A DNA stretch of 19,598 nucleotides from a virus (taxonomy: Duplodnaviria; Heunggongvirae; Uroviricota; Caudoviricetes), in IMG/VR virus record IMGVR_UViG_2526164634_000022. The stretch is one strand, 5' to 3'. Both the position numbers and the translations under genes were made by a program. The first letter of the stretch is position 1. The number at the start of each line of letters is the position of its first letter. Under the pieces are notes generated by a model. That model saw nothing but the letters and a program-made list of their open reading frames with translations, had not been told where the DNA came from and ran no database searches. Positions 2,825 through 19,598 of this stretch are shown in pieces.

Positions 2825-3251
2825 AACAACTGGACAAGTATACAGAGGTTTACTAAAGTATAGGGGAGTAGATTGATAAAAACTCACAGAGGATTGCTAT
2901 TTAACAGTTAGCCCTGGAGAAGGGCAATCGCTCTTTTATAAACGAAGGTGTATTGAGCCTTCTACGCTGCTGAAAAGCGGAATGTTCTTTAACAGGCTTT
3001 GGCGCTGACAAAGCGCAATTGTTCTTTAAAACTACTGGATGTCACGCCTAATAGCGTGATCCTGCCGAAATGCAGGGTAGCTCTACCCTTGTGGAGCAAA
3101 CAAACCAAAACAATCTGACTATCTTTTATAAAAGACCGCAATATGTTTTTCATATTGTGGTCTTTGGCGTATTCGACATTTGACGCAAATAAAACTCTCG
3201 CCATTCGTTGCAGGAGGGGGTTATTGCGTCATTAGTACAGGATATTAATAA

Positions 3252-3455
3252 ATGGCTAATTACAATTCATTAATTCGTCTCTCTGAAGTTCAAAGGCGAA
3301 CTGGTTATAGCAAAGCATGGATTTATCGTCTTATTAGTCAGGGGAGGTTCCCTAAACAGGTAAAAATTGGAAGTCGGGCAATTGCTTTTGTTGAGTCTGA
3401 AATAGATGAATGGATTGAGAAGTGTATATTAGAATCTAGAGACGAGGTGGCCTGA
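3252..3455 (+). CDS. alpA: AlpA-family transcriptional regulator / excisionase-like HTH protein
   Basis: 67-aa ORF; the motif LIRLSEVQRRTGYSKAWIYRLISQGRFPKQVKIGSRAIAFVESEIDEWI matches the AlpA/phage-Xis MerR-like HTH pattern; typical position after a P4-type int. Confidence 0.85.
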   Translation: MANYNSLIRLSEVQRRTGYSKAWIYRLISQGRFPKQVKIGSRAIAFVESEIDEWIEKCILESRDEVA

Positions 3456-3886
3456 TGGAAAAGAAAAACCGCCCATTACAGGCGGCTAATTCAGATATTC
3501 GCGTATCTGATGTTACGCCCCTGACAAAATCCCTTCAAGCACCAAAGCGCACGCCGAAAAAGCATCGTGCCCGAGTCTATATGCTGCGTACTGGTATAGA
3601 GGGATGGACAGAAAATGACATTCTTCGCTACTGCCGTCTGTCTTCTGGTCGTAACTATGCAACAGAGTTAGAACGCCAGCTCGGAATCACTCTGGAGCGT
3701 ATCGACGAAAAGAATCCTGATGGTATCGGAACACACCTTCGCTACCGTTTCTCCTGCCGTGGTGATGTTCTGAAAGTGATCACTCATATTAACCATCTTG
3801 CGAACATAAATGATCACAACGGACTTTCTCAGCAGGAAATTGCCGACATTCTGAAACTCTACCCGGACGCGTTTAACGCCGCCTAA
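3455..3886 (+). CDS. hypothetical protein (143 aa), translationally coupled to alpA
   Basis: ATG overlaps the alpA stop (TGATG); basic N-terminus; no family recognised by eye. Confidence 0.65.
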   Translation: MEKKNRPLQAANSDIRVSDVTPLTKSLQAPKRTPKKHRARVYMLRTGIEGWTENDILRYCRLSSGRNYATELERQLGITLERIDEKNPDGIGTHLRYRFSCRGDVLKVITHINHLANINDHNGLSQQEIADILKLYPDAFNAA

Positions 3887-3898
3887 CGGAGACTGAAA

Positions 3899-4732
3899 AT
3901 GAACATCGAAAAAAGCAGATTAATTTCTGAGGCTGCCCCTCATCTAAACGCCTCTCTGGGCACAATTAACGGTAATGAATTTGCCGCAATTGTCCCGGTT
4001 ATTCCTGGTCATATCGGTGGGCGTGAAACCAATATTGTTAGCGCAAAAGCGTTACACAAAGCGTTGGACGTGGGAAAAGACTTCTCTACATGGATCACTG
4101 ATCGCATCTCTGAATATGACTTCACCATTGGGCACGATTACTCAGTCCATAAAACTATTTCCCCAAATTTGGGGAAAATCCCGAATGGCGCGGCTTACAG
4201 CAAGATTAAGCAGTCTGGAAGACCCGGCAAAGACTATCTGTTAAGTGTCGGAATGGCGAAAGAACTGGCAATGATCGAACGCAATGATCAGGGGCGCGCT
4301 ATCCGTCGTTATTTCATCCAGTGCGAGGAAGAATTACAGCGTAGCGTGCCTGAAATCGCCGCCCGCTATCGTCGCCAGCTAAAAGCCCGTATCAGTGCCG
4401 CAAACAACTTTAAGCCAATGTGCGATGCGCTGAATATGGCCCGTGCCGAGATGGGGAAAACGACGCAGCAACACCACTACACAAACGAGAGCAATATGAT
4501 TTCTCGTATCGTTCTTGGTGGGCTAACTGCTAAGCAGTGGGCGCGGATAAATGGCTATTCTGGCGAACCTCGCGACCATATGAACGCAGAACAGCTTGAG
4601 CACCTCTCATATCTCGAAAGCACCAATATCACGTTAATTGATATGGGCATGGAATATGAGCAGCGCAAAGGAGAACTCACCCGCCTGTCGCAACGCTGGC
4701 TCGCTAAGCGTCTGGAGGCGGTCCATGTTTAA
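3899..4732 (+). CDS. AntA/AntB-type phage antirepressor-like protein
   Basis: 277-aa ORF with GGAG 7 nt upstream. N-terminal region (SAKALHKALDVGKDFSTWITDRISEYDFTIGHDY ... LSVGMAKELAMIERNDQGRAIRRYFIQCEE) resembles the AntA antirepressor domain; C-terminal half unassigned. Confidence 0.7.
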   Translation: MNIEKSRLISEAAPHLNASLGTINGNEFAAIVPVIPGHIGGRETNIVSAKALHKALDVGKDFSTWITDRISEYDFTIGHDYSVHKTISPNLGKIPNGAAYSKIKQSGRPGKDYLLSVGMAKELAMIERNDQGRAIRRYFIQCEEELQRSVPEIAARYRRQLKARISAANNFKPMCDALNMARAEMGKTTQQHHYTNESNMISRIVLGGLTAKQWARINGYSGEPRDHMNAEQLEHLSYLESTNITLIDMGMEYEQRKGELTRLSQRWLAKRLEAVHV

Positions 4733-7580: not shown

Positions 7581-7944
7581 AAATGCAGAAATGGCGCTTA
7601 GCTCCGCAATCGGAGAGCAGGTGGCAAAGATTGCTGGTGCTGTGTGGATTCATAACCTTCATTCTACTGGTGAAGAGAAAATGGCAATTCAGACGCCAGA
7701 GGGACGCACCATTACTACATCTCTGAAGCCGTCAGATGTTTGTGATCTGATTTGCGCATTCATGTACCCAGCAATGAGGACTGTCCACGGCGATAAGTGG
7801 AAACTTGCGACAACCGCTGAATTTGATATGTGGCTAAACAATGATGGCATGCTGACTGATTACGGAATAACCAAGTGGCAGATGCTGGTTAGCCATATCG
7901 CAAACGCTATAGACCACGTGGGGTACGGTGATGCGAAACATTGA
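7573..7944 (+). CDS. hypothetical protein (123 aa)
   Basis: ATG with GGGAGG RBS; overlaps neighbours at both ends. Confidence 0.6.
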   Translation: MRENAEMALSSAIGEQVAKIAGAVWIHNLHSTGEEKMAIQTPEGRTITTSLKPSDVCDLICAFMYPAMRTVHGDKWKLATTAEFDMWLNNDGMLTDYGITKWQMLVSHIANAIDHVGYGDAKH

Positions 7945-10687
7945 TCTTATCCGTCAGGTTATCAGTGCGTCTGAAAACAACTGGCCTCATGTGCTGGGCT
8001 GCCTGAACATAAATGTCCCTGACTCTCCGCGCCGTCATGCTCCCTGCCCTGCATGTGGGGGCAAAGATCGATTCCGGTTCGATGACAACGGGCGCGGTAG
8101 CTTCATCTGTAATCAGTGCGGCGCTGGTGATGGGCTGGATTTAATTAAACGCGTAAATAACTGCGACACAACAGAGGCGGCGCTTCTTGCCGCTGATGTT
8201 CTGGGTATTGATTACCGGACAACGGAAACACCAGAAGCCACCAGCCAGAAACGGGAACAACTGGAAACCGAGCGCCAGCGACGCGAACAGGAGCGCCTGA
8301 AAAGGGCAGAGAAGGACGAACAACAAAGACGGGATACGTTTTCCCGTCAGTTTGATGACATGCGCAGAAAGGCTGTAAACGGCAAATCTGATTATCTGGT
8401 TGCGAAAGGGGTAGGTGATTTTACATTCCCCGTGTTGCCCGATGGATCTCTGTTGCTGGCGCTGGTGGATAAATCCGGCGCAGTCACAGCAGCACAGACT
8501 ATTACCTCACATGGTGAAAAAAGACTCCTGACAGGTTCAGCAAAGCGGGGGGCATATCACGCCTTAAACGCACCAGAAACAACACAGAGCATCTTAATCG
8601 CAGAAGGGCTGGCAACGGCATTATCTGCCCATTTAATTCGTCCAGAGGCGCTGACAGTGGCGGCAATTGATGCCGGGAACCTGTTATATGTGGCCCAGGT
8701 ACTGCGGGATAAATTTCCTTCAGCACAAATCATCATTGCTGCGGATAACGACCACAGCGAAGGAAGACAAAACACGGGGAGAATAGCAGCAGAAAAAGCA
8801 GCTTTATCTGTTTCTGGATGGGTGGCATTACCCCCGACAGATCACAAAGCAGACTGGAATGATTACCACCAAAAACACGGCATTAAATGCGCCACAGAAG
8901 CGTTCAATAAGTCAATGTACCAACCACAGGGTAATGGCGTGAAACAGGAGCCACAGACCATTGAGGGAAGCGATTTTAAGGTTATGGATACCGACCCACT
9001 GAAACCAAGAATAGAAAGCCGCGAGGATGGTATTTATTGGGTATCTCCGAGAGCTGACAACCAGAGTGGAGAAATCATCAATAACGAAAGCTGGTTATGT
9101 TCTCCGTTAAGCGTTATCGGTACTGGCAGAGACGATAAAGACCAGTATCTCATTCTTCGCTGGCTGTCGTTTGGTTCTGAAACGCCGACAACCGCTGCCA
9201 TTCCACTGGCTGATATTGGTGAACGTGAAGGATGGCGCACACTTAAAGCTGGTGGGGTAAATGTCACGACCAAAAGCAGCCTCAGAGCAATACTGGCAGA
9301 CTGGCTACAACGCAGTGGCTCTCGTGAATTGTGGCGTGTTGCTCATGCCACTGGCTGGCAATGCGGAGCGTACATCATGCCTGATGGGGAAATCATCGGA
9401 ACACCTGAAAATCCTGTGCTGTTCAGCGGGAGAAGCTCAGCCGCAGCCGGATATACCGTCTCAGGGAGCGCGAAAAGCTGGCGTGATAACGTGGCGCGTC
9501 TGGCCTTTGGTAACTATTCAATGATGACCGGGATAGGCGCAGCACTGGCAGCGCCATTGATTGGGCTGGTGGGCGCTGACGGGTTCGGCATTCATTTCTA
9601 TGAGCAGTCGAGCGCAGGTAAGACCACCACGGCAAACGTGGCGAGCAGCTTATACGGCAACCCTGATTTACTGCGGCTGACGTGGTACGGAACCGCGCTG
9701 GGGCTGGCAAATGAGGCCGCCGCCCACAATGACGGACTAATGCCGCTTGATGAAGTTGGTCAGGGCGCTGATCCTGTCAGCGTTTCACAGTCTGCCTATG
9801 CGTTATTTAACGGTGTAGGGAAACTGCAAGGCGCTAAAGATGGTGGAAACCGGGATCTAAAACGCTGGCGTACAGTGGCAATCAGCACCGGAGAAATGGA
9901 TTTAGAAACATTTATCGCTACTTCCGGGCGAAAAACCAAAGCCGGGCAACTGGTGCGACTGCTGAATATTCCGTTGAGTAAAGCAGTACGCTTTCACGAT
10001 TACCAGAACGGAAAACAGCACGCAGACGCACTGAAAGACGCTTACCAGCATCACCACGGCGCGTCCGGGCGTGAGTGGATTAAATGGCTGGCAGACCACC
10101 AGCAACAGGCTATTAAAACCGTTCGTGACTGCGAAAGCAGATGGAGAAGCCTGATCCCATCCGATTATGGTGAGCAGGTTCACCGTGTAGCCGCGCGATT
10201 TGCCATTCTGGAGGCCGCATTGTTGTTAGGCGAGGTTGTAACAGGCTGGGATGCTCAGACATGCCGTGATGCGATACAGCACAGCTATAACGCATGGTTG
10301 CGCGAGTTCGGCACAGGTAACAAAGAGCATCAGCAGATTATTGAACAAACGGAGGCATTTCTTAATGCCTATGGGCTTAGCCGTTTTGCACCATTTCCAT
10401 ACAGCCCGGCAGATTTGCCCATCAAAGATTTAGCCGGATACCGTCAGCGTGGAGAACATGACGAAAGCCCAATGATTTTCTACACATTCCCGGCCACATT
10501 TGAAAAGGAGATCGCATGTGGTTTCAACGCAAAACAGTTTGCTGAAGTGTTGAAAAAAGCCGGGATGCTAACCCCACCAAACAGCGGTCGTGGATACCAA
10601 AGAAAATCACCACGTATTCAGGGACGACAAATAAACGTTTATGTACTCAATTACCAGCCAGGAGATTATAACTCATCTGAAGAATGA
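7928..10687 (+). CDS. P4-alpha-like primase / replication protein (zinc-ribbon + Toprim primase + P-loop/DUF927-like C-terminal domain)
   Basis: 919-aa ORF (GTG 7928 or ATG 7931). N-terminal Cys4 zinc ribbon (CPACGG...CNQCG); Toprim-like motifs ILIAEGLATALSA (compare the P4 alpha EGYATA motif) and IIIAADNDHSEGRQNTG; P-loop-like YEQSSAGKTT; followed directly by an iteron origin. Confidence 0.9.
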   Translation: MMRNIDLIRQVISASENNWPHVLGCLNINVPDSPRRHAPCPACGGKDRFRFDDNGRGSFICNQCGAGDGLDLIKRVNNCDTTEAALLAADVLGIDYRTTETPEATSQKREQLETERQRREQERLKRAEKDEQQRRDTFSRQFDDMRRKAVNGKSDYLVAKGVGDFTFPVLPDGSLLLALVDKSGAVTAAQTITSHGEKRLLTGSAKRGAYHALNAPETTQSILIAEGLATALSAHLIRPEALTVAAIDAGNLLYVAQVLRDKFPSAQIIIAADNDHSEGRQNTGRIAAEKAALSVSGWVALPPTDHKADWNDYHQKHGIKCATEAFNKSMYQPQGNGVKQEPQTIEGSDFKVMDTDPLKPRIESREDGIYWVSPRADNQSGEIINNESWLCSPLSVIGTGRDDKDQYLILRWLSFGSETPTTAAIPLADIGEREGWRTLKAGGVNVTTKSSLRAILADWLQRSGSRELWRVAHATGWQCGAYIMPDGEIIGTPENPVLFSGRSSAAAGYTVSGSAKSWRDNVARLAFGNYSMMTGIGAALAAPLIGLVGADGFGIHFYEQSSAGKTTTANVASSLYGNPDLLRLTWYGTALGLANEAAAHNDGLMPLDEVGQGADPVSVSQSAYALFNGVGKLQGAKDGGNRDLKRWRTVAISTGEMDLETFIATSGRKTKAGQLVRLLNIPLSKAVRFHDYQNGKQHADALKDAYQHHHGASGREWIKWLADHQQQAIKTVRDCESRWRSLIPSDYGEQVHRVAARFAILEAALLLGEVVTGWDAQTCRDAIQHSYNAWLREFGTGNKEHQQIIEQTEAFLNAYGLSRFAPFPYSPADLPIKDLAGYRQRGEHDESPMIFYTFPATFEKEIACGFNAKQFAEVLKKAGMLTPPNSGRGYQRKSPRIQGRQINVYVLNYQPGDYNSSEE

Positions 10688-11458: not shown

Positions 11459-11920
11459 ATGGAACTAAAATTTATTGATAACCCTGTGCGATTACAGGCC
11501 TTTCTTAACGAGCCAGGCAATACCGAAAATATTGTTGAGCCGGGGCACACGTACTACATCAAGCCTGATGCGGTATATCTCGGCATCTACGAAGGATTAG
11601 TGCTGGCTGGCGTTCATGAAGTGCGTAACTTCTGGCATAGCGTTGTTGAATGCCATGCGGTGTACGACCCCGGATTCCGTGGTGAATATGCACTGCAAGG
11701 ACATCGATTATTCTGCAAATGGCTTCTCGAAAACTCACCATTCCTTAACAGCATCACTATGGTTCCTGACACCACGAAATACGGACGGGCAATTATCCGT
11801 TTGCTTGGCGCTACCCGTGTTGGTCACCTTGATGATGCTTATATCAGATGTGGTAAACCCGTCGGCGTAACGCTTTATCAGTTAACTCGGCAACAATATA
11901 AGGAATTCAGCGAATGTTAA
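11459..11920 (+). CDS. hypothetical protein (153 aa)
   Basis: ORF with the next gene's ATG overlapping its end; no family recognised. Confidence 0.6.
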   Translation: MELKFIDNPVRLQAFLNEPGNTENIVEPGHTYYIKPDAVYLGIYEGLVLAGVHEVRNFWHSVVECHAVYDPGFRGEYALQGHRLFCKWLLENSPFLNSITMVPDTTKYGRAIIRLLGATRVGHLDDAYIRCGKPVGVTLYQLTRQQYKEFSEC

Positions 11921-12591
11921 TTACCCATATAGCTCATAAACATCTCAATCGTGCCGTATACGAAAAAGGCGGTGATGGTGGTGCCTCTAAAGCTCAGGCG
12001 AAGGCCCAGCAGCAGGCAATTGATTTGCAGCGCGAGCAGTGGAATACGGTGATGAATAATCTCAAGCCGTATGCAGAAGTCGGATTGCCTGCTTTACAAC
12101 AACTACAAGGACTGATGACTCTGGAAGGGCAGAATAAAGCCGCGAATGATTTCTTTGGTTCTGGTTTATATAAAACACAGGCAGATCAGGCCCGTTATCA
12201 GAACCTTGTCTCAGCAGAAGCTACCGGGGGGCTTGGCTCAACAGCTACCAGTAACCAGTTATCTTCCATTGCGCCCATGCTTTATAACAATTGGCTTAGT
12301 GGGCAAATGCAAAATTATGGAAACCTGCTAAATGTCGGGATGAATGCGGCATCAGGGCAGGCAACGGCAGGGCAAAACTACGCCAATAATACCGGACAAC
12401 TCTTGCAGGGGCTTGGCGCTATTCGTGCAGGTCAGGCGCAGCAGCCATCCAGTCTTGCGCGTGGTATTGGTGGGGCAGCATCAGGCGCTTTAGCGGGTGC
12501 GCAACTTGGTTCCGTTGTTCCTGGAATAGGAACTGCGGCCGGCGCTATTGGTGGTGGGCTTATTGGTCTTGTTGGGGGGCTTGGATTCTAA
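11914..12591 (+). CDS. Q/A/G-rich protein, possibly a P22-family ejection (DNA-transfer) protein gp7 homolog
   Basis: 225 aa; N-terminal YEKGGDGGASKAQAKAQQQ, Q/N/A-rich middle, Gly-rich hydrophobic C-terminus (GIGTAAGAIGGGLIGLVGGLGF); size and first position in a three-gene coupled operon match P22 gp7 (229 aa). Homology is recalled, not searched. Confidence 0.5.
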   Translation: MLITHIAHKHLNRAVYEKGGDGGASKAQAKAQQQAIDLQREQWNTVMNNLKPYAEVGLPALQQLQGLMTLEGQNKAANDFFGSGLYKTQADQARYQNLVSAEATGGLGSTATSNQLSSIAPMLYNNWLSGQMQNYGNLLNVGMNAASGQATAGQNYANNTGQLLQGLGAIRAGQAQQPSSLARGIGGAASGALAGAQLGSVVPGIGTAAGAIGGGLIGLVGGLGF

Positions 12592-14012
12592 TGGCGACAT
12601 GGCAACTTGGCGGGCTGCCTAGCATGGCACCGCAAAATGATAATGCTCCTCGTTCTTCCGTTCCTCAGCCTGTGCAGTATCAGCAGCAGCCAAACGTAGG
12701 TTTAATGGCGCTACAGGGGCTAAGAGGCGTTGCTGAGATTAATCAGCAGGCACGTCAACAACAGCGTAAAGCAGAGTTTCAGAAAGCATATGCCGGGGCT
12801 TTTGAGTCTGGAGACAGAAACAAAATGCGCAGTCTTATTTCTGAGTATCCAGAAGAATTTGAAAGCGTTCAGAAAGGGATGGGCTTTATTGATGACGACC
12901 AGAGAAATTCTATTGGTCATCTTGCGACTAGTGCTCAAATCGCATCTTCGCTCGGAACTGGGGCATTTGGAAAATTCATAGCAGATAACGAAGATGAAAT
13001 GCGTCGCTTGGGAATTTCTCCTGAGTCTGTTGCCGAAATGCATGTTAATGATCCACAGGGGTTCCAGCGGCTTGCTGGTAGTATGGCACTGTTTTCTCTC
13101 GGTCATGAGAAGTATTTCGATATCAAAGATCAAATGGAAGGTCGGGATATTGAGCGTGGCAAGTTGGCAGAAACAATCCGCAGCAATCAGGCTGGCGAAG
13201 CACTTCAGGCGAGAGGGCAGGATATTAGCCGAGCAAATGCGTTAACGTCAGCATATGCACCAACAGCAGCAATGCAGAATTACAATCAGTACGCTCAAAT
13301 GTTAAAGGCGGATCCAGAGGGGGCGGCGGCATTTGCGGCAGCGGCTGGAATTAATACAAACGCCAAAAAATTAATGAGTGTTAGAGAAAACGATGATGGC
13401 ACTGTCACAAAATACTACACAGACGGAAGTGAAGAGCAGGGAAAACTAAACCAGCCAATATCTGGAGATGGGTTTCGTCCAATAGCTTTGCCAACAGCCC
13501 AAAAGATCATGGAAAAGTCGCCAGAAGGGGCTAAAAAAGCTGCTGGATTTGCATACAGGGTTAGGGATGCTCTTGATTCAATAGATACACTGAAAGACCA
13601 GCTTAGCCCACAGCGAGTGGCGATCATTAATAATGCTTTGGGTAATGGGACGCTGGCTAACTTAACGCTCAGCCCAACAGAACAGCAATACGTTGTTAAT
13701 GCTAATGACGCAATAATGGCAATACTCCGTCAGGAAACAGGGGCAGCCATCGTACCTGCTGAAATGTCAAAATATTATCAAATGTATTTCCCTCAGCCTG
13801 GCGACTCCACAAAAACCATTGATACCAAGCGCCGGAAGATGGAAAACCAGTTCAATTCGCTGAAAGCTGCTTCTGGTCGAGCTTATGATGCTTTGCGGGT
13901 TATTTCAGCAGTTGACAGAGGAACTTCTTCTTCGTCGCAGACATTGCCGCAATCTGAGCAGGTATCACAGCCAGCAGCCAGCAGTAACTTTTCTTCACTA
14001 TGGGGTGATTAA
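12591..14012 (+). CDS. Q/A-rich protein, possibly a P22-family ejection protein gp20 homolog
   Basis: 473 aa (P22 gp20 is 471 aa); TAATG start/stop overlaps at both ends; low-complexity Q/A-rich composition. Confidence 0.5.
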   Translation: MATWQLGGLPSMAPQNDNAPRSSVPQPVQYQQQPNVGLMALQGLRGVAEINQQARQQQRKAEFQKAYAGAFESGDRNKMRSLISEYPEEFESVQKGMGFIDDDQRNSIGHLATSAQIASSLGTGAFGKFIADNEDEMRRLGISPESVAEMHVNDPQGFQRLAGSMALFSLGHEKYFDIKDQMEGRDIERGKLAETIRSNQAGEALQARGQDISRANALTSAYAPTAAMQNYNQYAQMLKADPEGAAAFAAAAGINTNAKKLMSVRENDDGTVTKYYTDGSEEQGKLNQPISGDGFRPIALPTAQKIMEKSPEGAKKAAGFAYRVRDALDSIDTLKDQLSPQRVAIINNALGNGTLANLTLSPTEQQYVVNANDAIMAILRQETGAAIVPAEMSKYYQMYFPQPGDSTKTIDTKRRKMENQFNSLKAASGRAYDALRVISAVDRGTSSSSQTLPQSEQVSQPAASSNFSSLWGD

Positions 14013-16116
14013 TGGCTAAAGCATGGAAAGATGTTATCGCCTCTCCACAGTATCAGGCGTTAGCACCAGAACAAAAAGCGCAGGCTCAGGAGCAATACTT
14101 CAATGAAGTCGTGGCCCCGCAAGCCGGAGAAAGTGTAGAGCAGGCTAAGCAGGCTTTTTATGCTGCCTATCCACTACCATCAACGAATGAAATAGACCGA
14201 TCCCAATCAGCAACTCAAAATATTCAACATACATCATCTGATAATTCTCTTGCGTCAGGGTATGCAAAGTTAGCTACTCAGCAAAGAGAGGGGCTTGAGC
14301 GTTCAGCAGAACAGGGAGCCAGTCTTGGGGCTGCGATGCGCGATGCTATAACAGGCGAAAGCCGAATGACTCCAGAGATGGAGAGACTGCAAAATGTCGA
14401 CCTTGCCCCAGAGTTAACCTCACTCAGCATGGATGCTCTAAAAGCTCGATGGTCTCAACTTTTCGGCTCTGACGCATCTCAGGAAAAGATTCTTCAGAGC
14501 ATGGGAGCGAAATTAAGGCAGGATGAGAAGGGTAACACTATCGTTTCCCTGCCATCCGGTGATTATGCTCTGAACAAGCCGGGTTTATCGCCGCAAGACG
14601 TGGCATCGTTTCTGGCTAATGCGCAGGCGTTTACACCAGCGGGCAGGGCTGGAACGGTGCTTGGTGCCATAGGAAAATCAGCAGCTACAGATTTAGCACT
14701 ACAGGGAGCCACTAGCCTTGCTGGTGGAGAAGATATTGATCCGTTACAAACGGTAATTTCTGCTGGCATTGGTGGTATTGGTAAGGGGCTGGAAAATACA
14801 GCGAGTGCGGTTTCGAGGGCTGTTCGTGGTGATATGTCGCCTGAAGCAAAGGCTGCTGTCGACTTTGCATCGGAAAGAAATCTGCCGTTAATGACCAGTG
14901 ACATGCTAAAAGATAAAACCTTTATGCAGAGTCAGGCTCAGACATTAGGCGAAAGAGTTCCTTTTTTGGAACCGGTAAGAATCGGCTGAATCAACAACAA
15001 GCACGAGAAAATTTAGTCAGAACATTTAGCGATGGTCTGGGTGGCATTTCTGATAAACAGCTTTATGAATCTGCGACTAAAGGGCAACAAAAATTCATTG
15101 AGGCAGCGGGAAAGCGATATAACCGCATAATTGACGCTATGGGGGATACCCCTGTCGATCTCTCAAACACGGTAAAAGCTATCGACAATCAGATTGCCGT
15201 GTTAAGCCGCCCGGGCAAATCTCAGGATAGAGCCGCGGTAAAAGTCTTGCAGCAATTTAAAGACGATATCACCAGCGGACCAAATGACCTGCGTCTGGCG
15301 AGGGAAAACAGAACCGATCTTCGAAATCGATTTATGGCGTCATCTGACACTGTTGATAAAGATACGCTCCAGAAAGCCAGCGATATTATCTACAAGGCAT
15401 ATACGGCGGATATGAAAAAAGCCGTAGCCAAAAATCTTGGAGCAGACGAAGCCATTAATATGGCAAGGGTTGATCGCTCATGGTCTAAATTCAATGACAT
15501 GATGGGAAGAACGCGCGTTCAAAAGGCAATAGCCAGCGGCAAGGCCACGCCTGAGGATGTAACAAAACTCGTTTTTAGCCAAAGCCCATCAGAACGTTCT
15601 CAGCTTTACAGGCTTCTGGATGACAATGGTAGGCAAAACGCACGAGCAGCCATAGTTCAGAATGCTGTAGATAAGGCGACTGATCCGTCTGGAAATATCA
15701 GTGTTGAGAAGTTTATTAATGCGTTACACCGGAACAGGAAGCAATCAGCAACTTTCTTTAAAGGCGTACATGGAAAGGAACTGGACGGCGTTATTAAATA
15801 CCTCAACGATACAAGACACGCGGCAAAAGCGAACGTTCAAAACTTAAATGGTCAGCAGCTTTATGGATTGTTAGTTGGTGGTGGCATCATAAACGCAGCA
15901 GTATTAGCGGGGATGCTAAAAACGGCTGCGTTTGTTGTTCCTGCTGCTGGTGCCGTAGGCGGAGCAGCGAAGGCATACGAAAGCCCTGTTATACGAAATG
16001 CCTTGTTACGTCTGGCAAATACGCCAAAAGGTAGCACAGCATATGACAGAGCGATCAGTACGGTCACACAATCGCTCACCAGAGTCGCACAGGCATCACA
16101 AAAAGAAGCTCAATAA
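14012..16116 (+). pseudogene. gp16-like ejection protein gene split by a frameshift (or homopolymer sequencing error): ORF halves 14012-14989 and 15139-16116
   Basis: The downstream frame is open with no ATG from 14917 to 15138, overlapping the end of the upstream ORF; a T6 run at 14962-14967 lies in the overlap; the 150-bp gap contrasts with the 1-nt overlaps elsewhere in the operon. Confidence 0.55.
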
Positions 16117-16135: not shown

Positions 16136-16750
16136 TTAGATATCTCTGCTGTCTCCATTAGGAAATAAAAGATAATATGGATTTGCCTTTCTTGCTCTCC
16201 TTGCTTCACCTGGATACCTGTTAGTCAGTAGCTTGCATAATGAGCAGAGAACAACACTCAAGAAAATTCCGAATGAGAAGATCAATATCTCACCAAAAAT
16301 CAATGGCGATATTAAATTTTCAGGATTTAATGATAAGTCAATGTTAAAAACATATTGAGCAATACCAGTAAGTATCAATAATATAATCCCTATGGAATAC
16401 ATTGCTGTTTCCCAAACATCAGACAGTCTATTTTTGAATTGTTCGCTGGAGTAGTAGTTTGTTATAAAGTCAGAAAAATCACTCTCATATGCATCATCTT
16501 TAGGTGATGTTAGAAATCCTCTGTCTCTCCATACCTTCTCCCAATTAGTCGATTCTTTTTTTAAGGAAAAATAAATATGTATTGCCAAAAGGATAGCCAA
16601 AATTGGTGTTAGCTCTAAAAAATAGAATGTTATGGAATAAATAATACTGCCATGTTCAAACTCATCTGGGACTATCATGTATGCACAAAAATAAATTGAA
16701 AAGTACACCATGCAGATAGTTAGCAATTCTTTAGTATCTTTTCTGCTCAC
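16136..16750 (-). CDS. AT-rich integral membrane protein (about 4 TM helices); candidate superinfection-exclusion (SieA-like) or other membrane effector
   Basis: 204-aa ORF, GTG start at 16750 with AAGGGGG 5 nt upstream; hydrophobic segments (LLTICMVYFSIYFCAYMIV, ILAILLAIHIYF, IGIILLILTGIAQYVF, IFGEILIFSFGIFLSVVLCSL); about 33% GC versus about 50% in flanks; convergent with the gp16-like gene, as sieA is with gene 16 in P22. Confidence 0.7.
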   Translation of the reverse strand: MSRKDTKELLTICMVYFSIYFCAYMIVPDEFEHGSIIYSITFYFLELTPILAILLAIHIYFSLKKESTNWEKVWRDRGFLTSPKDDAYESDFSDFITNYYSSEQFKNRLSDVWETAMYSIGIILLILTGIAQYVFNIDLSLNPENLISPLIFGEILIFSFGIFLSVVLCSLCKLLTNRYPGEARRARKANPYYLLFPNGDSRDI

Positions 16751-16863
16751 ACCAACCCCCTTTAGCGTTGTTTAGAATGGCAATCATCATATATCCAAGA
16801 CATGGCATTTGGTACATAGCTTGGGTCGGGATTTCAAATCCGCCCCCGTTGATGGGGTCGTTA

Positions 16864-17260
16864 CAGTACGCGCATATCCGCTTTATGTGAAACAGGAAGA
16901 TTTTTCTGATATCACTGCCACAGCAAAACACCAATTTCGAGACAAGTACGCGCGCGAGGGGTATCAGTTGCAAAAAGTTTTGCAACTGCGTCCGACCAGT
17001 ACGCACACAATGGAGGGGAGTACCATAAAACTGTTCTCTACATAAGACAGAGTGGTGGTGATGTGTTGATTATCGGCGTATATGCGCACAGGACGCGCTA
17101 TGACGATGTTTTATGCGGGTACACCAATCACATGTATCTGGTGTGATAAATCGCGTTACATGACATCTCATGTTGTGCTGGTGGTTATCACGACGTTCTG
17201 AATCTGGCCTTTGCCTGATATTTTGCGACAAGTACGCGCGCGTAGCATAGAAATTATCGG
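16864..17260. repeat. Repeat-rich noncoding region: exact 16-bp direct repeat GACAAGTACGCGCGCG (16941-16956, 17227-17242), AGTACGC(G/A)C motif x4, and palindrome CAGTTGCAAAA-AG-TTTTGCAACTG (16965-16988)
   Basis: Repeats read from the sequence; no convincing ORF with an RBS; lies between the membrane-protein gene and the Abi gene. Confidence 0.45.
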
Positions 17261-17393
17261 ATGGCGTATGCTGCTGGCAATATGAAGACCGATAGTATTA
17301 ACCGAAAAGCGATTAAGGAGTGCCAACTTTTCAGTAGAGAAACTAGCCAGCATAGGAAAATGTAGAAATTACCCAATTAATAGGTAAAAGTTA

Positions 17394-17523
17394 TTGACAC
17401 AGCCTGTAGTGGATAACGATATGAATAAAAACCACATATAGTGGTTTTTCGTGAGTGATGATAGTATCTATGTTAGTTTCCTAAGTAACTGTGCATTGAC
17501 ATGTGGATAACTTCGGATAGAGT
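17394..17523 (+). promoter_or_regulatory. Two candidate sigma70 promoters for the Abi gene, each with a DnaA-box-like site next to the -35 (TTGACA 17394-17399 + AGTGGATAA 17408-17416; TTGACA 17496-17501 + TGTGGATAA 17502-17510, -10 TAGAGT 17518-17523)
   Basis: Two perfect TTGACA hexamers; TGTGGATAA is the reverse complement of the DnaA box TTATCCACA. -10 elements are weak. Confidence 0.3.
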
Positions 17524-17619
17524 TACAGGCAACCGAGCCCGATCCTCTGTTTCTCCGCCGCCGATTTCAGGCATGTGAGTTTCACGGTCGGGCCTTTTAT
17601 TATCTTTTGTTTCGCCACT

Positions 17620-18597
17620 ATGATTGCCGCAAAGCCTCATAAGGACTATCACGAATTGCTAGGATTGCTACTTGAACGTGGCATGATTATCAATGATCGA
17701 AATCGTGCGATACGTAAGCTGTCGCAGGTTGGATATTATCGATTGTCAGGTTTTTGGTACCCATCAAGAATTATTGCGACAACAGATAAAGGTCTTTCGT
17801 ACAGAACAGACCGATTTCTTGCTGGTACCAGTTTCGAGAAGACGTACGATCTATATCTTTTTGACAAAAAACTGCGTCTTTTGATGATTGATGCTATCGA
17901 AAGAATAGAGATTCATGTTCGTTCAGTCATCGCGCATGAGGTTGGTCGCAATGATCCACTTGCCTACATGTCATCAAAATACATTAATCCAAAATTCTCA
18001 TCTGCCTTCGAGCATTGGGTGTATAAGCAAAAAGTAAAATTAGACGAAAGCAGAGATGACTGTATTGAATGGCATCGAAGCCAAGGCAAGGAGATTCCAT
18101 TTTGGGTGGCGGTGGAGACCTGGGATTTTGGTCAGATGTCTAAATATTATGCGATGCTTAATGGTCATATGCAGGGGAAAATTATACGTCGTTTTGGCAT
18201 TGATAATAAGCAGACATTTGCAAAATGGTTGAAGTGCCTTAATCTCATAAGGAATCGTTGCGCTCACCATTCCAGAATATGGAATAGAAAGCATCCCCGA
18301 GTTCCAGTACCGGATAATGAATACTTTGACGGACTTAATCTCCATCCAGAGAGTTGCGAGAGGATTTTTAGCGCGATCTGTATTATCTGGTACTTAGTTA
18401 AACGACTTGGTCCGGGATCAACATGGCTTCGGCAAATTGCAGACCTTATTGACTCTAAACCAAATGTTCCCGGATGTGGATATGATTCAATGGGTTTACC
18501 TGCTAAAGGATTCCCACGAGAGAGATTCTCTCAGGACTTAGGTTTTGTTATCGCCGACAACGACCCTGTAGCTGAAGGGCGGAAAGGGAGCGATTGA
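17620..18597 (+). CDS. Abi_2 family abortive-infection protein (AbiD/AbiF-like)
   Basis: Motifs YYRLSGFWYP, ERIEIHVRSVIAHEVG and NLIRNRCAHHSRIWN, characteristic of the AbiD/AbiF (Abi_2) family. Start set at the first in-frame ATG (17620); the track ORF extends to a GTG at 17575. About 40% GC. Confidence 0.8.
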   Translation: MIAAKPHKDYHELLGLLLERGMIINDRNRAIRKLSQVGYYRLSGFWYPSRIIATTDKGLSYRTDRFLAGTSFEKTYDLYLFDKKLRLLMIDAIERIEIHVRSVIAHEVGRNDPLAYMSSKYINPKFSSAFEHWVYKQKVKLDESRDDCIEWHRSQGKEIPFWVAVETWDFGQMSKYYAMLNGHMQGKIIRRFGIDNKQTFAKWLKCLNLIRNRCAHHSRIWNRKHPRVPVPDNEYFDGLNLHPESCERIFSAICIIWYLVKRLGPGSTWLRQIADLIDSKPNVPGCGYDSMGLPAKGFPRERFSQDLGFVIADNDPVAEGRKGSD

Positions 18598-18626
18598 GCG
18601 ATAAATATCATTTATACACTGATCAA

Positions 18627-19067
18627 TTACTGAAGCAGCGTATTGATTCTTTTAATATTGTTACCCTGACGCTTCCACGCGCTGTAAATGTCTTTATCCC
18701 ACGCTTTACCAGCTTTTGTTTGGTAGCCTGCTTCATTGAGTCGTTCCGCTATCACACGCCCATTATCAAATCCCTGTCGGATGGTATCGGCAATGATCTT
18801 TATAACTGCTGTTTCGTTATATGGCTTTGGTGGGATGTTCGGCTTTCCGGCAATAAGCGATGCTGCGGCTTTTTCCATGCGCTCCACCAGCCCAAGCATT
18901 CGTGAATCAATAGACTTTTCCGGCTGTCCCAGCTTCATGCGAATCGCATCAACAAGCCAGGAGGTTTTATCCCCTCCAGAAGCGAGAACAGACCGATTAA
19001 ACTCATCCTGCAATTCAGATGGGATGCGGAACGCGATCAGATTAGATTTGCTCATTGCAAAGACCAT
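18627..19067 (-). CDS. Arc/MetJ-type ribbon-helix-helix DNA-binding protein with a C-terminal recombinase-like DNA-binding segment
   Basis: 146 aa (start 19067 or 19055). N-terminus NLIAFRIPSELQDEFNRSVLASGGDKTSWLVDAIRMKL fits a beta-strand/helix/helix RHH fold; C-terminal GRVIAERLNEAGYQTKAGKAWDKDIYSAWKRQ resembles the recombinase domain of serine recombinases; palindrome GTATAACA-C-TGTTATAC (19090-19106) just upstream. Confidence 0.65.
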   Translation of the reverse strand: MVFAMSKSNLIAFRIPSELQDEFNRSVLASGGDKTSWLVDAIRMKLGQPEKSIDSRMLGLVERMEKAAASLIAGKPNIPPKPYNETAVIKIIADTIRQGFDNGRVIAERLNEAGYQTKAGKAWDKDIYSAWKRQGNNIKRINTLLQ

Positions 19068-19159
19068 ATCAGTGAGTAATATCCATACAGTATAACACTG
19101 TTATACGCTCAAATATCAGCCAGAAAATAACGAACCAATCACAAATCTATCGCTGTGTT

Positions 19160-19280
19160 GTTGGTTCAGAGCTGGGCTGTGTTGGTTCAAAATGAGTTGA
19201 TGTTGGTTCAATATTTTAGAAAAAACACAATAAAAACAACGCTCTTTACAAATTGAACCAACTGAACCAACTGAACCAAC
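19160..19280. repeat. Second iteron cluster, an inverted and diverged copy of the 10713-10832 origin: GTTGGTTCA at 19160, 19181, 19202 (21-bp phasing), AT-rich spacer, then TGAACCAAC x3 tandem (19254-19280)
   Basis: Same 9-bp unit as the first cluster; flanks also match (CTCTTTACAAATTGAACCAAC...ACCTTTT in cluster 2 equals the reverse complement of the cluster 1 flank; TGTGTTGGTTCAAAAT shared). Confidence 0.8.
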
Positions 19281-19316
19281 ACCTTTTTGCTTATCTATAT
19301 AATCTGAGAGGCAGAA

Positions 19317-19598
19317 ATGATAAAGGACAGGAAAGCTGAAGAGCTGGAGTCAAAAGGGCTATACCGGAGAGCTGCCGCACGATGGATGGAAGTCATGCTG
19401 TTATGCACCGAGGACGATGATCGGGAATGGATAAAGCGCCGCCGTGAAACGTGTCTGGAGAACGTGAAGCGCCCGCCCGTGAAGGTTGAGGACTTTGGCG
19501 ACCTGCATAAAGCTGTTACCGAAACGCAACACCGCATGGGGATAGCGCAACCGAACGGTAACGCCTTCCGGTTAAATGGCGGCAAGAGGCAAAGGTAG
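19317..19598 (+). CDS. PerC-family transcriptional activator-like protein
   Basis: 93-aa ORF ending with a stop at 19596-19598; N-terminus MIKDRKAEELESKGLYRRAAARWMEVM matches the PerC/Pch family signature; starts 37 bp after the iteron cluster. Confidence 0.75.
   Translation: MIKDRKAEELESKGLYRRAAARWMEVMLLCTEDDDREWIKRRRETCLENVKRPPVKVEDFGDLHKAVTETQHRMGIAQPNGNAFRLNGGKRQR

Follow-up and report, generated by a model that had tools for sequence, protein, structure and literature searches.

A conserved, covarying leader RNA, putatively an antitoxin, precedes an Abi_2/AbiF gene on an Escherichia coli thrW island

The IMG/VR virus record IMGVR_UViG_2526164634_000022, a stretch of 19,598 nucleotides referred to here as the window, carries a gene of the Abi_2/AbiF family (17620-18597) behind a short structured leader. 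The window corresponds to the E. coli chromosome at the thrW locus, with proA at 1-1254 and tRNA-Thr at 1369-1444. Downstream of the tRNA gene it encodes an integrase (1610-2824) and a Toprim/DUF927 primase-helicase (7928-10687), and by this gene content the setting of abiF is a satellite-like or prophage-like island integrated at thrW. The Abi region is 100% identical in E. coli SLK172 and many other strains, and the same gene is also found on an IMG/VR predicted viral contig (L212). In the RefSeq annotation of SLK172 the region is labelled "Abi family protein" alone, and the 870 nt upstream bear no annotated feature. Within that upstream stretch lies the subject of this report, an RNA of about 80 nt which, on comparative evidence, is conserved, covarying and tied to the abiF gene.

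The open reading frame (ORF) at 17620-18597 (plus strand, 325 amino acids) encodes, judged by its profile matches and catalytic residues, a genuine member of the Abi_2/AbiF HEPN ribonuclease (RNase) family with an Rx4-6H motif, a putative toxin. The first-pass annotation of the window had named the gene from the signature motifs YYRLSGFW and RNRCAHHSRIWN; both are present, and a Pfam search confirms the family (Abi_2, PF07751; E 2e-52, 178.6 bits against a cut-off of 25.6, profile positions 2-184 of 184). The PADLOC AbiD model also matches (E 7e-58), as does PbAbiF from PDB entry 8VZ6, a complex of AbiF with its non-coding RNA (ncRNA) and the only solved family member (E 4e-36, residues 4-301). 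The HEPN catalytic motif R211-N-R-C-A-H216 (Rx4H) is encoded at 18250-18267 on the plus strand and aligns with R210...H215 of PbAbiF; the PbAbiF double variant R210A+H215A is reported to be inactive (PMC12373285). R211, N212, A215, H216 and H217 are invariant among 25 homologs. The RefSeq protein WP_021542399.1 ("Abi family protein") starts at the same codon, ATG 17620. An alternative GTG start at 17575, which would give a 340-amino-acid ORF, was rejected, since it falls within the RNA and the alignment of homologs begins at ATG 17620; a minus-strand ORF at 17473-17652 (59 amino acids) was likewise set aside, being a by-product of the conserved RNA region.

The leader RNA occupies 17530-17612 on the plus strand and consists of a 5' flank (CAACCGA in the window), a closing helix P1, an internal loop, a hairpin P2 and a U-rich tail. 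The first-pass annotation had pointed to a long-range stem between GAGCCCGATC (17535-17544) and CGGTCGGGCC (17585-17594), followed by a T-rich tract and the first ATG (17620). These elements lie where it placed them, with the T-rich tract at 17595-17612 and the ATG the first in frame, and the helix is kept by compensatory changes. Its true register is G17537-C17544 with G17586-C17593, so that the 8-bp P1 pairs a 5' strand GCCCGAUC (17537-17544) with a 3' strand GGUCGGGC (17586-17593), both on the plus strand; 6 of the 8 pairs show compensatory changes across homologs. Inside P1, a 5' bulge of sequence C-Y-C (17545-17547) faces the single nucleotide C17585, and its columns (23-25 of the alignment A2 described below) are nearly invariant; we infer that this bulge is a protein contact. 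The P2 hairpin (17548-17584) starts from the invariant base pairs U17548-A17584 and G17549-C17583 (26-69 and 27-68 in A2) and continues through a UUU/UUU internal loop and a CUC/GAG stem to a variable apex, with compensatory changes in 7 of its 9 pairs. Within the enterobacterial subclade, P2 keeps UGUUUCUC...GUGAGUYUCA. The family consensus reads, in order, a CAAYNG 5' flank, an 8-bp G+C-rich P1, the C-Y-C bulge, an invariant U-G pairing with Y-A at the base of a variable P2, one unpaired nucleotide, the P1 3' strand and a pyrimidine-rich tail CCUUCUUnUUUC.

The case for this RNA is built on 80 genomic loci encoding relatives of 41-68% amino-acid identity, drawn from Enterobacterales, Pseudomonas, Vibrionaceae, Pasteurellaceae, Burkholderiales, Desulfobacterota and one Nitrospirota metagenome-assembled genome. 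When their upstream regions are lined up, the element is found directly upstream, and on the same strand, of essentially all of these relatives. Alignment A2, which holds 75 non-identical homologous loci, has 90.9% of its cells paired, and 13 of 17 pairs show double (compensatory) changes. Its covariation score is 0.477, compared with 0.213 for column shuffles (none of 500 reaches the observed value) and at most 0.168 for slid registers. RNAalifold recovers the RNA core independently from the homolog alignment, and P1 is 98.5% paired in an independent IMG/VR set. Folding of the single sequence, a check that the first-pass annotation had suggested, gives a divided answer: the fold of 17525-17625 is unremarkable (z -0.86), while 17530-17612 does modestly better than shuffles (z -2.14) and its minimum-free-energy structure is the consensus. 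Because the fold on its own beats shuffles only modestly, the evidence for the RNA is comparative, not thermodynamic.

A covariance model built from the homolog alignment (R1) finds one copy in the window (17525-17613, 46.4 bits). Across 515 kb of homolog loci it returns 79 hits, all on the gene strand, of which 78 adjoin abiF and one is displaced. It also recovers 32 of 34 independently fetched IMG/VR viral loci and matches a human-gut scaffold (L083, 25.7 bits) whose protein is 35% identical. R1-type RNA is found directly upstream of about 110 homologous genes in Gamma- and Betaproteobacteria, Desulfobacterota, Nitrospirota and prophage contigs. The model gave no hit in 705 kb of unrelated viral DNA, and it accepted none of the 80 IMG/VR loci returned by the loose DNA pattern CCTG...GGGCCTTCTT, which served only as a specificity control. 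The displaced copy comes from Candidatus Electronema halotolerans (L053), in which the motif lies at 1-54, about 2.9 kb upstream of an abiF match (3001-3924) that starts at residue 20; this layout suggests that an insertion split the RNA and the N-terminus from the remainder of the gene.

Transcription of the leader can be assigned to a sigma-70 promoter at 17496-17523 on the plus strand, with a -35 hexamer TTGACA (17496-17501), a 16-nt spacer and a -10 hexamer TAGAGT (17518-17523). It scores 10 of 12 matches in a promoter scan, and its predicted start at about 17530 coincides with the conserved CAAYNG flank. In 69 of 79 homologous loci, a -35 hexamer (one mismatch at most) is likewise placed 40-43 nt ahead of P1. 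The gap between the RNA and the start codon is short, about 20-45 nt, and there is no room for a second promoter. The fixed promoter distance and the short gap together imply that RNA and gene are co-transcribed. Two TTGACA promoters had been proposed in the first-pass annotation; both strings exist (17394 and 17496), and it is the proximal one that stands. The distal TTGACA (17394-17399), which with GTGGATAAC at 17409-17417 makes up a plus-strand feature at 17394-17417, was rejected as a promoter, as the scan found no acceptable -10 and a 9-bp hairpin lies directly downstream. This perfect inverted repeat, AAAAACCAC/GTGGTTTTT around a 5-nt loop (17427-17449) with an A run and a T run at its sides, resembles a bidirectional terminator and may insulate the module from upstream transcription. 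Two relatives (L214 and L219) have a comparable hairpin and T run upstream of their promoter.

P1 is directly followed by the pyrimidine/U-rich tail CUUUUAUUAUCUUUUGUUU (17594-17612, plus strand), in which 14 of 19 nt are U. The abiF ATG lies 26 nt after P1 and about 90 nt from the predicted transcription start. The opening of the tail, CCUUYU..., is conserved in the RNA family, although the family consensus is only moderately U-rich. By analogy with the C. difficile leader RNA RCd22 (PMC12373285), the tail is probably a leaky intrinsic terminator, a processing site or both. No alternative (antiterminator) pairing was found in the leader, and no recognisable Shine-Dalgarno sequence precedes the ATG in the window or in the enterobacterial subclade. 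In relatives that do have a Shine-Dalgarno sequence, the tail segments CCUUC or UUCUUA are predicted to pair with GGAGG or UGGGAA (L089 1141-1165, L018 2978-2993), and in these loci the tail might serve as an anti-Shine-Dalgarno element, according to the predicted pairing. The first-pass suggestion of a terminator or attenuator is kept in part: the leader is structured, ends in a U-rich tract and very probably controls the gene, but its stem is best taken as the closing helix of an RNA and not merely a terminator hairpin.

RNA and gene together form a cargo module (17252-18656, plus strand) within a variable hotspot of the island, at whose edges homology to other E. coli islands breaks off and resumes. 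The backbone homology of those islands ends at 17251 (L091) or 17312 (L090) and restarts at 18657. The flanks of the hotspot (16747 to about 17251/17312, and 18657 onward) are conserved in 554 E. coli genomes, whereas the interior is variable and holds the abiF gene of the window, a second abiF allele, an ImmA/IrrE peptidase with a hypothetical gene, a helix-turn-helix regulator or a small ORF. The conserved, non-coding left flank of about 500 nt (16747-17251) has neither annotation nor an Rfam match. The second abiF allele is that of E. coli strain 779 (L089), whose promoter is identical to that of the window. Strain 779 and the window have essentially the same sequence as far as about 17528, promoter included, after which RNA and gene both diverge, and similarity between the abiF genes falls to about 68% in the single stretch of DNA that can still be aligned. 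P1 changes from GCCCGAUC/GGUCGGGC to GCCCGGCC/GGCCGGGC, a compensatory A-U to G-C replacement. Since RNA and gene diverge together from the transcription start, they appear to travel as one cassette behind a shared promoter, and such joint divergence is what would be expected of a cognate RNA-protein pair.

Leaders of this general kind have a recent precedent. According to PMC12373285, PMC12737573 and PMC13064643, which cite Zilberzwige-Tal et al. 2025, AbiF was described in 2025 as a type III toxin-antitoxin system with a conserved 5'-leader ncRNA as antitoxin. The structure of PbAbiF, as outlined in PMC12737573 and PMC13064643, is a HEPN dimer in which one ncRNA per monomer blocks the active site. 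RCd22 of C. difficile is part of the abiF leader and is made from the abiF promoter; most of its transcripts end at a terminator and some read through (PMC12373285). This RNA acts in cis, as a repressor of abiF, and in trans, where it neutralises the toxin by binding it directly; stem-disrupting mutations abolish its function, and compensatory ones do not (PMC12373285). With terminator and read-through already published for an AbiF leader (PMC12373285), the first-pass expectation that a leader attenuator would be new does not survive. A regulatory leader on an Abi_2 gene is not new; it is the RNA class that may be a new variant for a known system.

The window shares much with these systems. 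The toxin is homologous to PbAbiF over its full length and has the same Rx4H HEPN motif, and, as in PbAbiF-AbiFr, a short structured ncRNA lies immediately upstream on the same strand, the single gene and RNA forming a module on mobile DNA. PbAbiF comes from Prevotellaceae, protein identity is about a third, and the AbiFr RNA could be compared indirectly, through relatives. With the RCd22-AbiFCd pair of the C. difficile prophage phi027/phiC2 (PMC12373285), the window has in common one sigma-A/sigma-70 promoter, an ncRNA in the 5' leader, a terminator-like element before the ORF, a prophage or satellite location and the R...H catalytic pair. RCd22 differs in having two tandem RF03085 motifs that Rfam detects, a separate terminator hairpin and a distance of 168 nt to the ATG. 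The window carries one motif copy, of another type, and it is this motif's own closing helix that stands before the U-rich tail; the two proteins are about 29% identical. The type III systems ToxIN, AbiQ and AbiV also combine an RNA antitoxin upstream of an RNase toxin, a leaky terminator between the two and abortive infection. ToxN and AbiQ, however, lie outside the HEPN/Abi_2 proteins, and for antitoxins they have tandem repeats that are processed into pseudoknots, whereas the window has another toxin fold and what would be a single-hairpin antitoxin.

Taken together, the locus can with good confidence be read as a two-component AbiF-type type III toxin-antitoxin or abortive-infection module, carried as cargo in a thrW-integrated, satellite-like island. 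Since the anatomy of the window is that of the published AbiF systems, the leader is assigned as an RNA antitoxin and a limiter of expression. The present analysis shows the protein family and its catalytic motif, the covarying, gene-linked RNA and the position of the promoter; the steps from termination or processing through RNA-protein binding and neutralisation to phage defence are drawn from homology or analogy. On this model, the single sigma-70 promoter starts transcription at about 17530, and the first 65 nt or so fold into P1, the C-Y-C bulge and P2, followed by the U-rich tail. Most transcripts would end or be processed in the tail, giving an abundant RNA of about 70-80 nt, and a minority would read through into abiF. 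With few read-through transcripts and no Shine-Dalgarno sequence, little toxin would be made. The RNA would bind the AbiF HEPN RNase dimer and block its active site (R211/H216). Phage infection would then lower or displace the labile RNA, so that free AbiF could cleave cellular and phage RNA and arrest growth.

Several observations weigh against this toxin-antitoxin reading. A terminator scan made no call at the U-rich tail, where the loop is too long, and most relatives have CCUUCUUGUUUC as their tail, which makes a weak U-tract. The known abiF RNA family, Rfam RF03085, has no match at E <= 10 in 17380-17640 or 16500-19598 (its gathering score is 37 bits, and the leader of phage phiC2, used as positive control, scores 37.6 bits). 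Furthermore, the fetched relatives closest to PbAbiF carry, by eye, an RF03085-type hairpin, with the consequence that the RNA-protein interface of 8VZ6 is not simply transferable to the RNA of the window. Loci assigned to this type by eye come from Phocaeicola (L084, 51% identity), Bacteroides (L085), Acinetobacter, Synechocystis and Rhodococcus. As an aside, the Abi_2 gene with an RF03085-like leader on the Acinetobacter pittii plasmid pApiA45Pc (L087) is inserted in a type I restriction system, between the genes for its S and R subunits.

The two leader types appear distinct from both sides. RF03085 gave no match at E <= 1 on four loci with relatives (L002, L008, L018 and L083), and R1 matches none of the fetched RF03085-type loci. 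Permissive Rfam matches in the leader (lactis-plasmid, isrK, mir) were dismissed as noise, all having E > 0.7. Among 4227 Rfam models none matches the RNA class of the window, and no description of it was found in a literature search that did not extend to the original Cell report of 2025. RF03085 (Weinberg et al. 2017; consensus CCCGCC-A-AGC-CUCUCA...GCU-CAAAUC-GGCGGG) does resemble the window RNA in being abiF-associated and in its G+C-rich closing helix with CCUCU just inside the 5' strand, and a CAAY-type 5' flank is seen by eye in the fetched examples; neither model gives statistical support for homology. Its own architecture is a 37-nt element with a 6-bp P1, 1 nt on the 5' side, a 3-bp P2 (AGC/GCU), a terminal loop that carries the CUCU element and, on the 3' side, the 6-nt bulge CAAAUC. 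In the window, the motif instead combines an 8-bp P1, a 3-nt 5' bulge (CYC) facing 1 nt, a long variable P2 starting with UG/YA and a CCUUCUU tail. This leads to a bolder proposal, which we put forward tentatively: the RNA at 17530-17612 may represent a second, uncatalogued structural class of AbiF antitoxin, built of P1, the C-Y-C bulge, a variable P2 and the CCUUCUU tail. Such a class would serve a large proteobacterial/Desulfobacterota branch of Abi_2, E. coli satellites included, and would be exchanged with the toxin as a cognate cassette that keeps the shared promoter in front of it. The tail of most members might also act as an anti-Shine-Dalgarno element, so that one leader of about 80 nt would unite antitoxin, terminator and translational control.

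Other explanations of the leader must be considered. It might act purely in cis, as a terminator, attenuator or translational control element with no antitoxin role in trans, AbiF being controlled by its expression level alone. A G+C-rich P1 followed by 14 U in 19 nt, the lack of a Shine-Dalgarno sequence in the enterobacterial subclade and the predicted pairing of CCUUC in the tail with GGAGG or GGGAA in L089 and L018 all fit such a role, RCd22 itself also represses in cis (PMC12373285), and translation of AbiD1 is activated by a phage protein (PMC13064643). For termination alone, however, neither the C-Y-C bulge nor the U-A/G-Y base of P2, both invariant, nor the conserved CAAYNG flank is needed, and a purely cis-acting leader sits poorly with the joint swap of RNA and protein alleles in strain 779, with the binding of homologous proteins to their own leader RNA (8VZ6; PMC12373285) and with the missing antiterminator pairing. 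On balance a leader of this kind is unlikely. The stem and T-tract could also be a hairpin formed by chance, or the usual terminator of a gene lying upstream; the unremarkable fold of 17525-17625 would suit this, yet the comparative data refute it: the stem covaries, is strictly linked to abiF across phyla and has a conserved promoter 41 nt upstream, and the nearest upstream gene is on the opposite strand.

A further possibility, that DnaA regulates the promoter or promoters and couples abiF to the replication status of the cell or of an infecting phage, arises from the first-pass claim of one DnaA box per promoter. The boxes themselves exist. A perfect 9-mer TTATCCACA lies on the minus strand at 17502-17510 (plus strand TGTGGATAA), inside the spacer of the proximal promoter, and no other perfect match occurs in the window; a one-mismatch box is found 94 nt upstream, at 17408-17416. 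A 9-nt direct repeat, GTGGATAAC, with two copies 94 nt apart, is not conserved. The window is moreover enriched in DnaA-like 9-mers with at most one mismatch, holding 11 where 4.6 are expected, a count reached in 2 of 200 shuffles. A functional role, perhaps a local one in E. coli, has no support. Such a box precedes the RNA in one of 79 loci, namely the E. coli module of the window, and DnaA regulation was rejected as a family feature on this ground. Relatives read TGYCGGTAA at its position, close relatives carry TGYCGGTAACTT in the same spacer, the nearest have TGCCGGTAA or TGTCGGTAA at the box, and the closest show TGCCGGTAACTT or TGTCGGTAACTT where the window has TGTGGATAACTT. Given a single occurrence and a different spacer in close relatives, the box looks like drift. 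The distal TTGACA, in addition, is not credible as a promoter. In E. coli, perfect DnaA boxes are frequent, and the majority have no regulatory role. Control by DnaA is thus very improbable. As a separate observation, DnaA-box-like 9-mers lie at 15351-15674, 8464-8748 and 17408-17510, with three clustered in the ORF at 15139-16116; their excess may relate to replication of the island, or may be chance.

The surroundings of the module hold other features of note. At 11459-14989, P22-type DNA-ejection genes stand beside the satellite-style primase; the set comprises DUF2824, P22 gp7 (E 7e-73) and the injectosome translocase Inj_translocase (E 5e-58), and SLK172 holds a different gene set at this position. 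Four ORFs of 146-325 amino acids around the module matched nothing in Pfam or PADLOC (14012-14989, 15139-16116 and, on the minus strand, 16136-16750 and 18627-19067). Between the last of these, which encodes 146 amino acids, and a PerC-family gene (from 19317), a dense iteron-like array spans 19124-19282. Three copies of GTTGGTTCA at 21-nt spacing (19159-19214) face three copies of TGAACCAAC at 9-nt spacing (19254-19280), an arrangement that resembles an operator or an origin-type repeat set.

For the locus itself, a speculative "new attenuator" gives way to an ordinary member of a recently explained system. Annotators label loci of this kind "AbiD", a single-gene system, and none of the Rfam 15 models finds the RNA of the window; with a covariance model for this RNA, many proteobacterial Abi_2 loci could be annotated in full. 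AbiF has been proposed as the ancestor of Cas13, and its RNA partner as a forerunner of the CRISPR RNA (crRNA). If true, a second class of RNA partner would show the plasticity of the RNA side of the AbiF partnership. With more than 100 covarying examples and a tractable host in E. coli, the system is well suited to asking what sets the specificity between cognate RNA and toxin, how the RNA is terminated or processed, and which phage cue frees the toxin.

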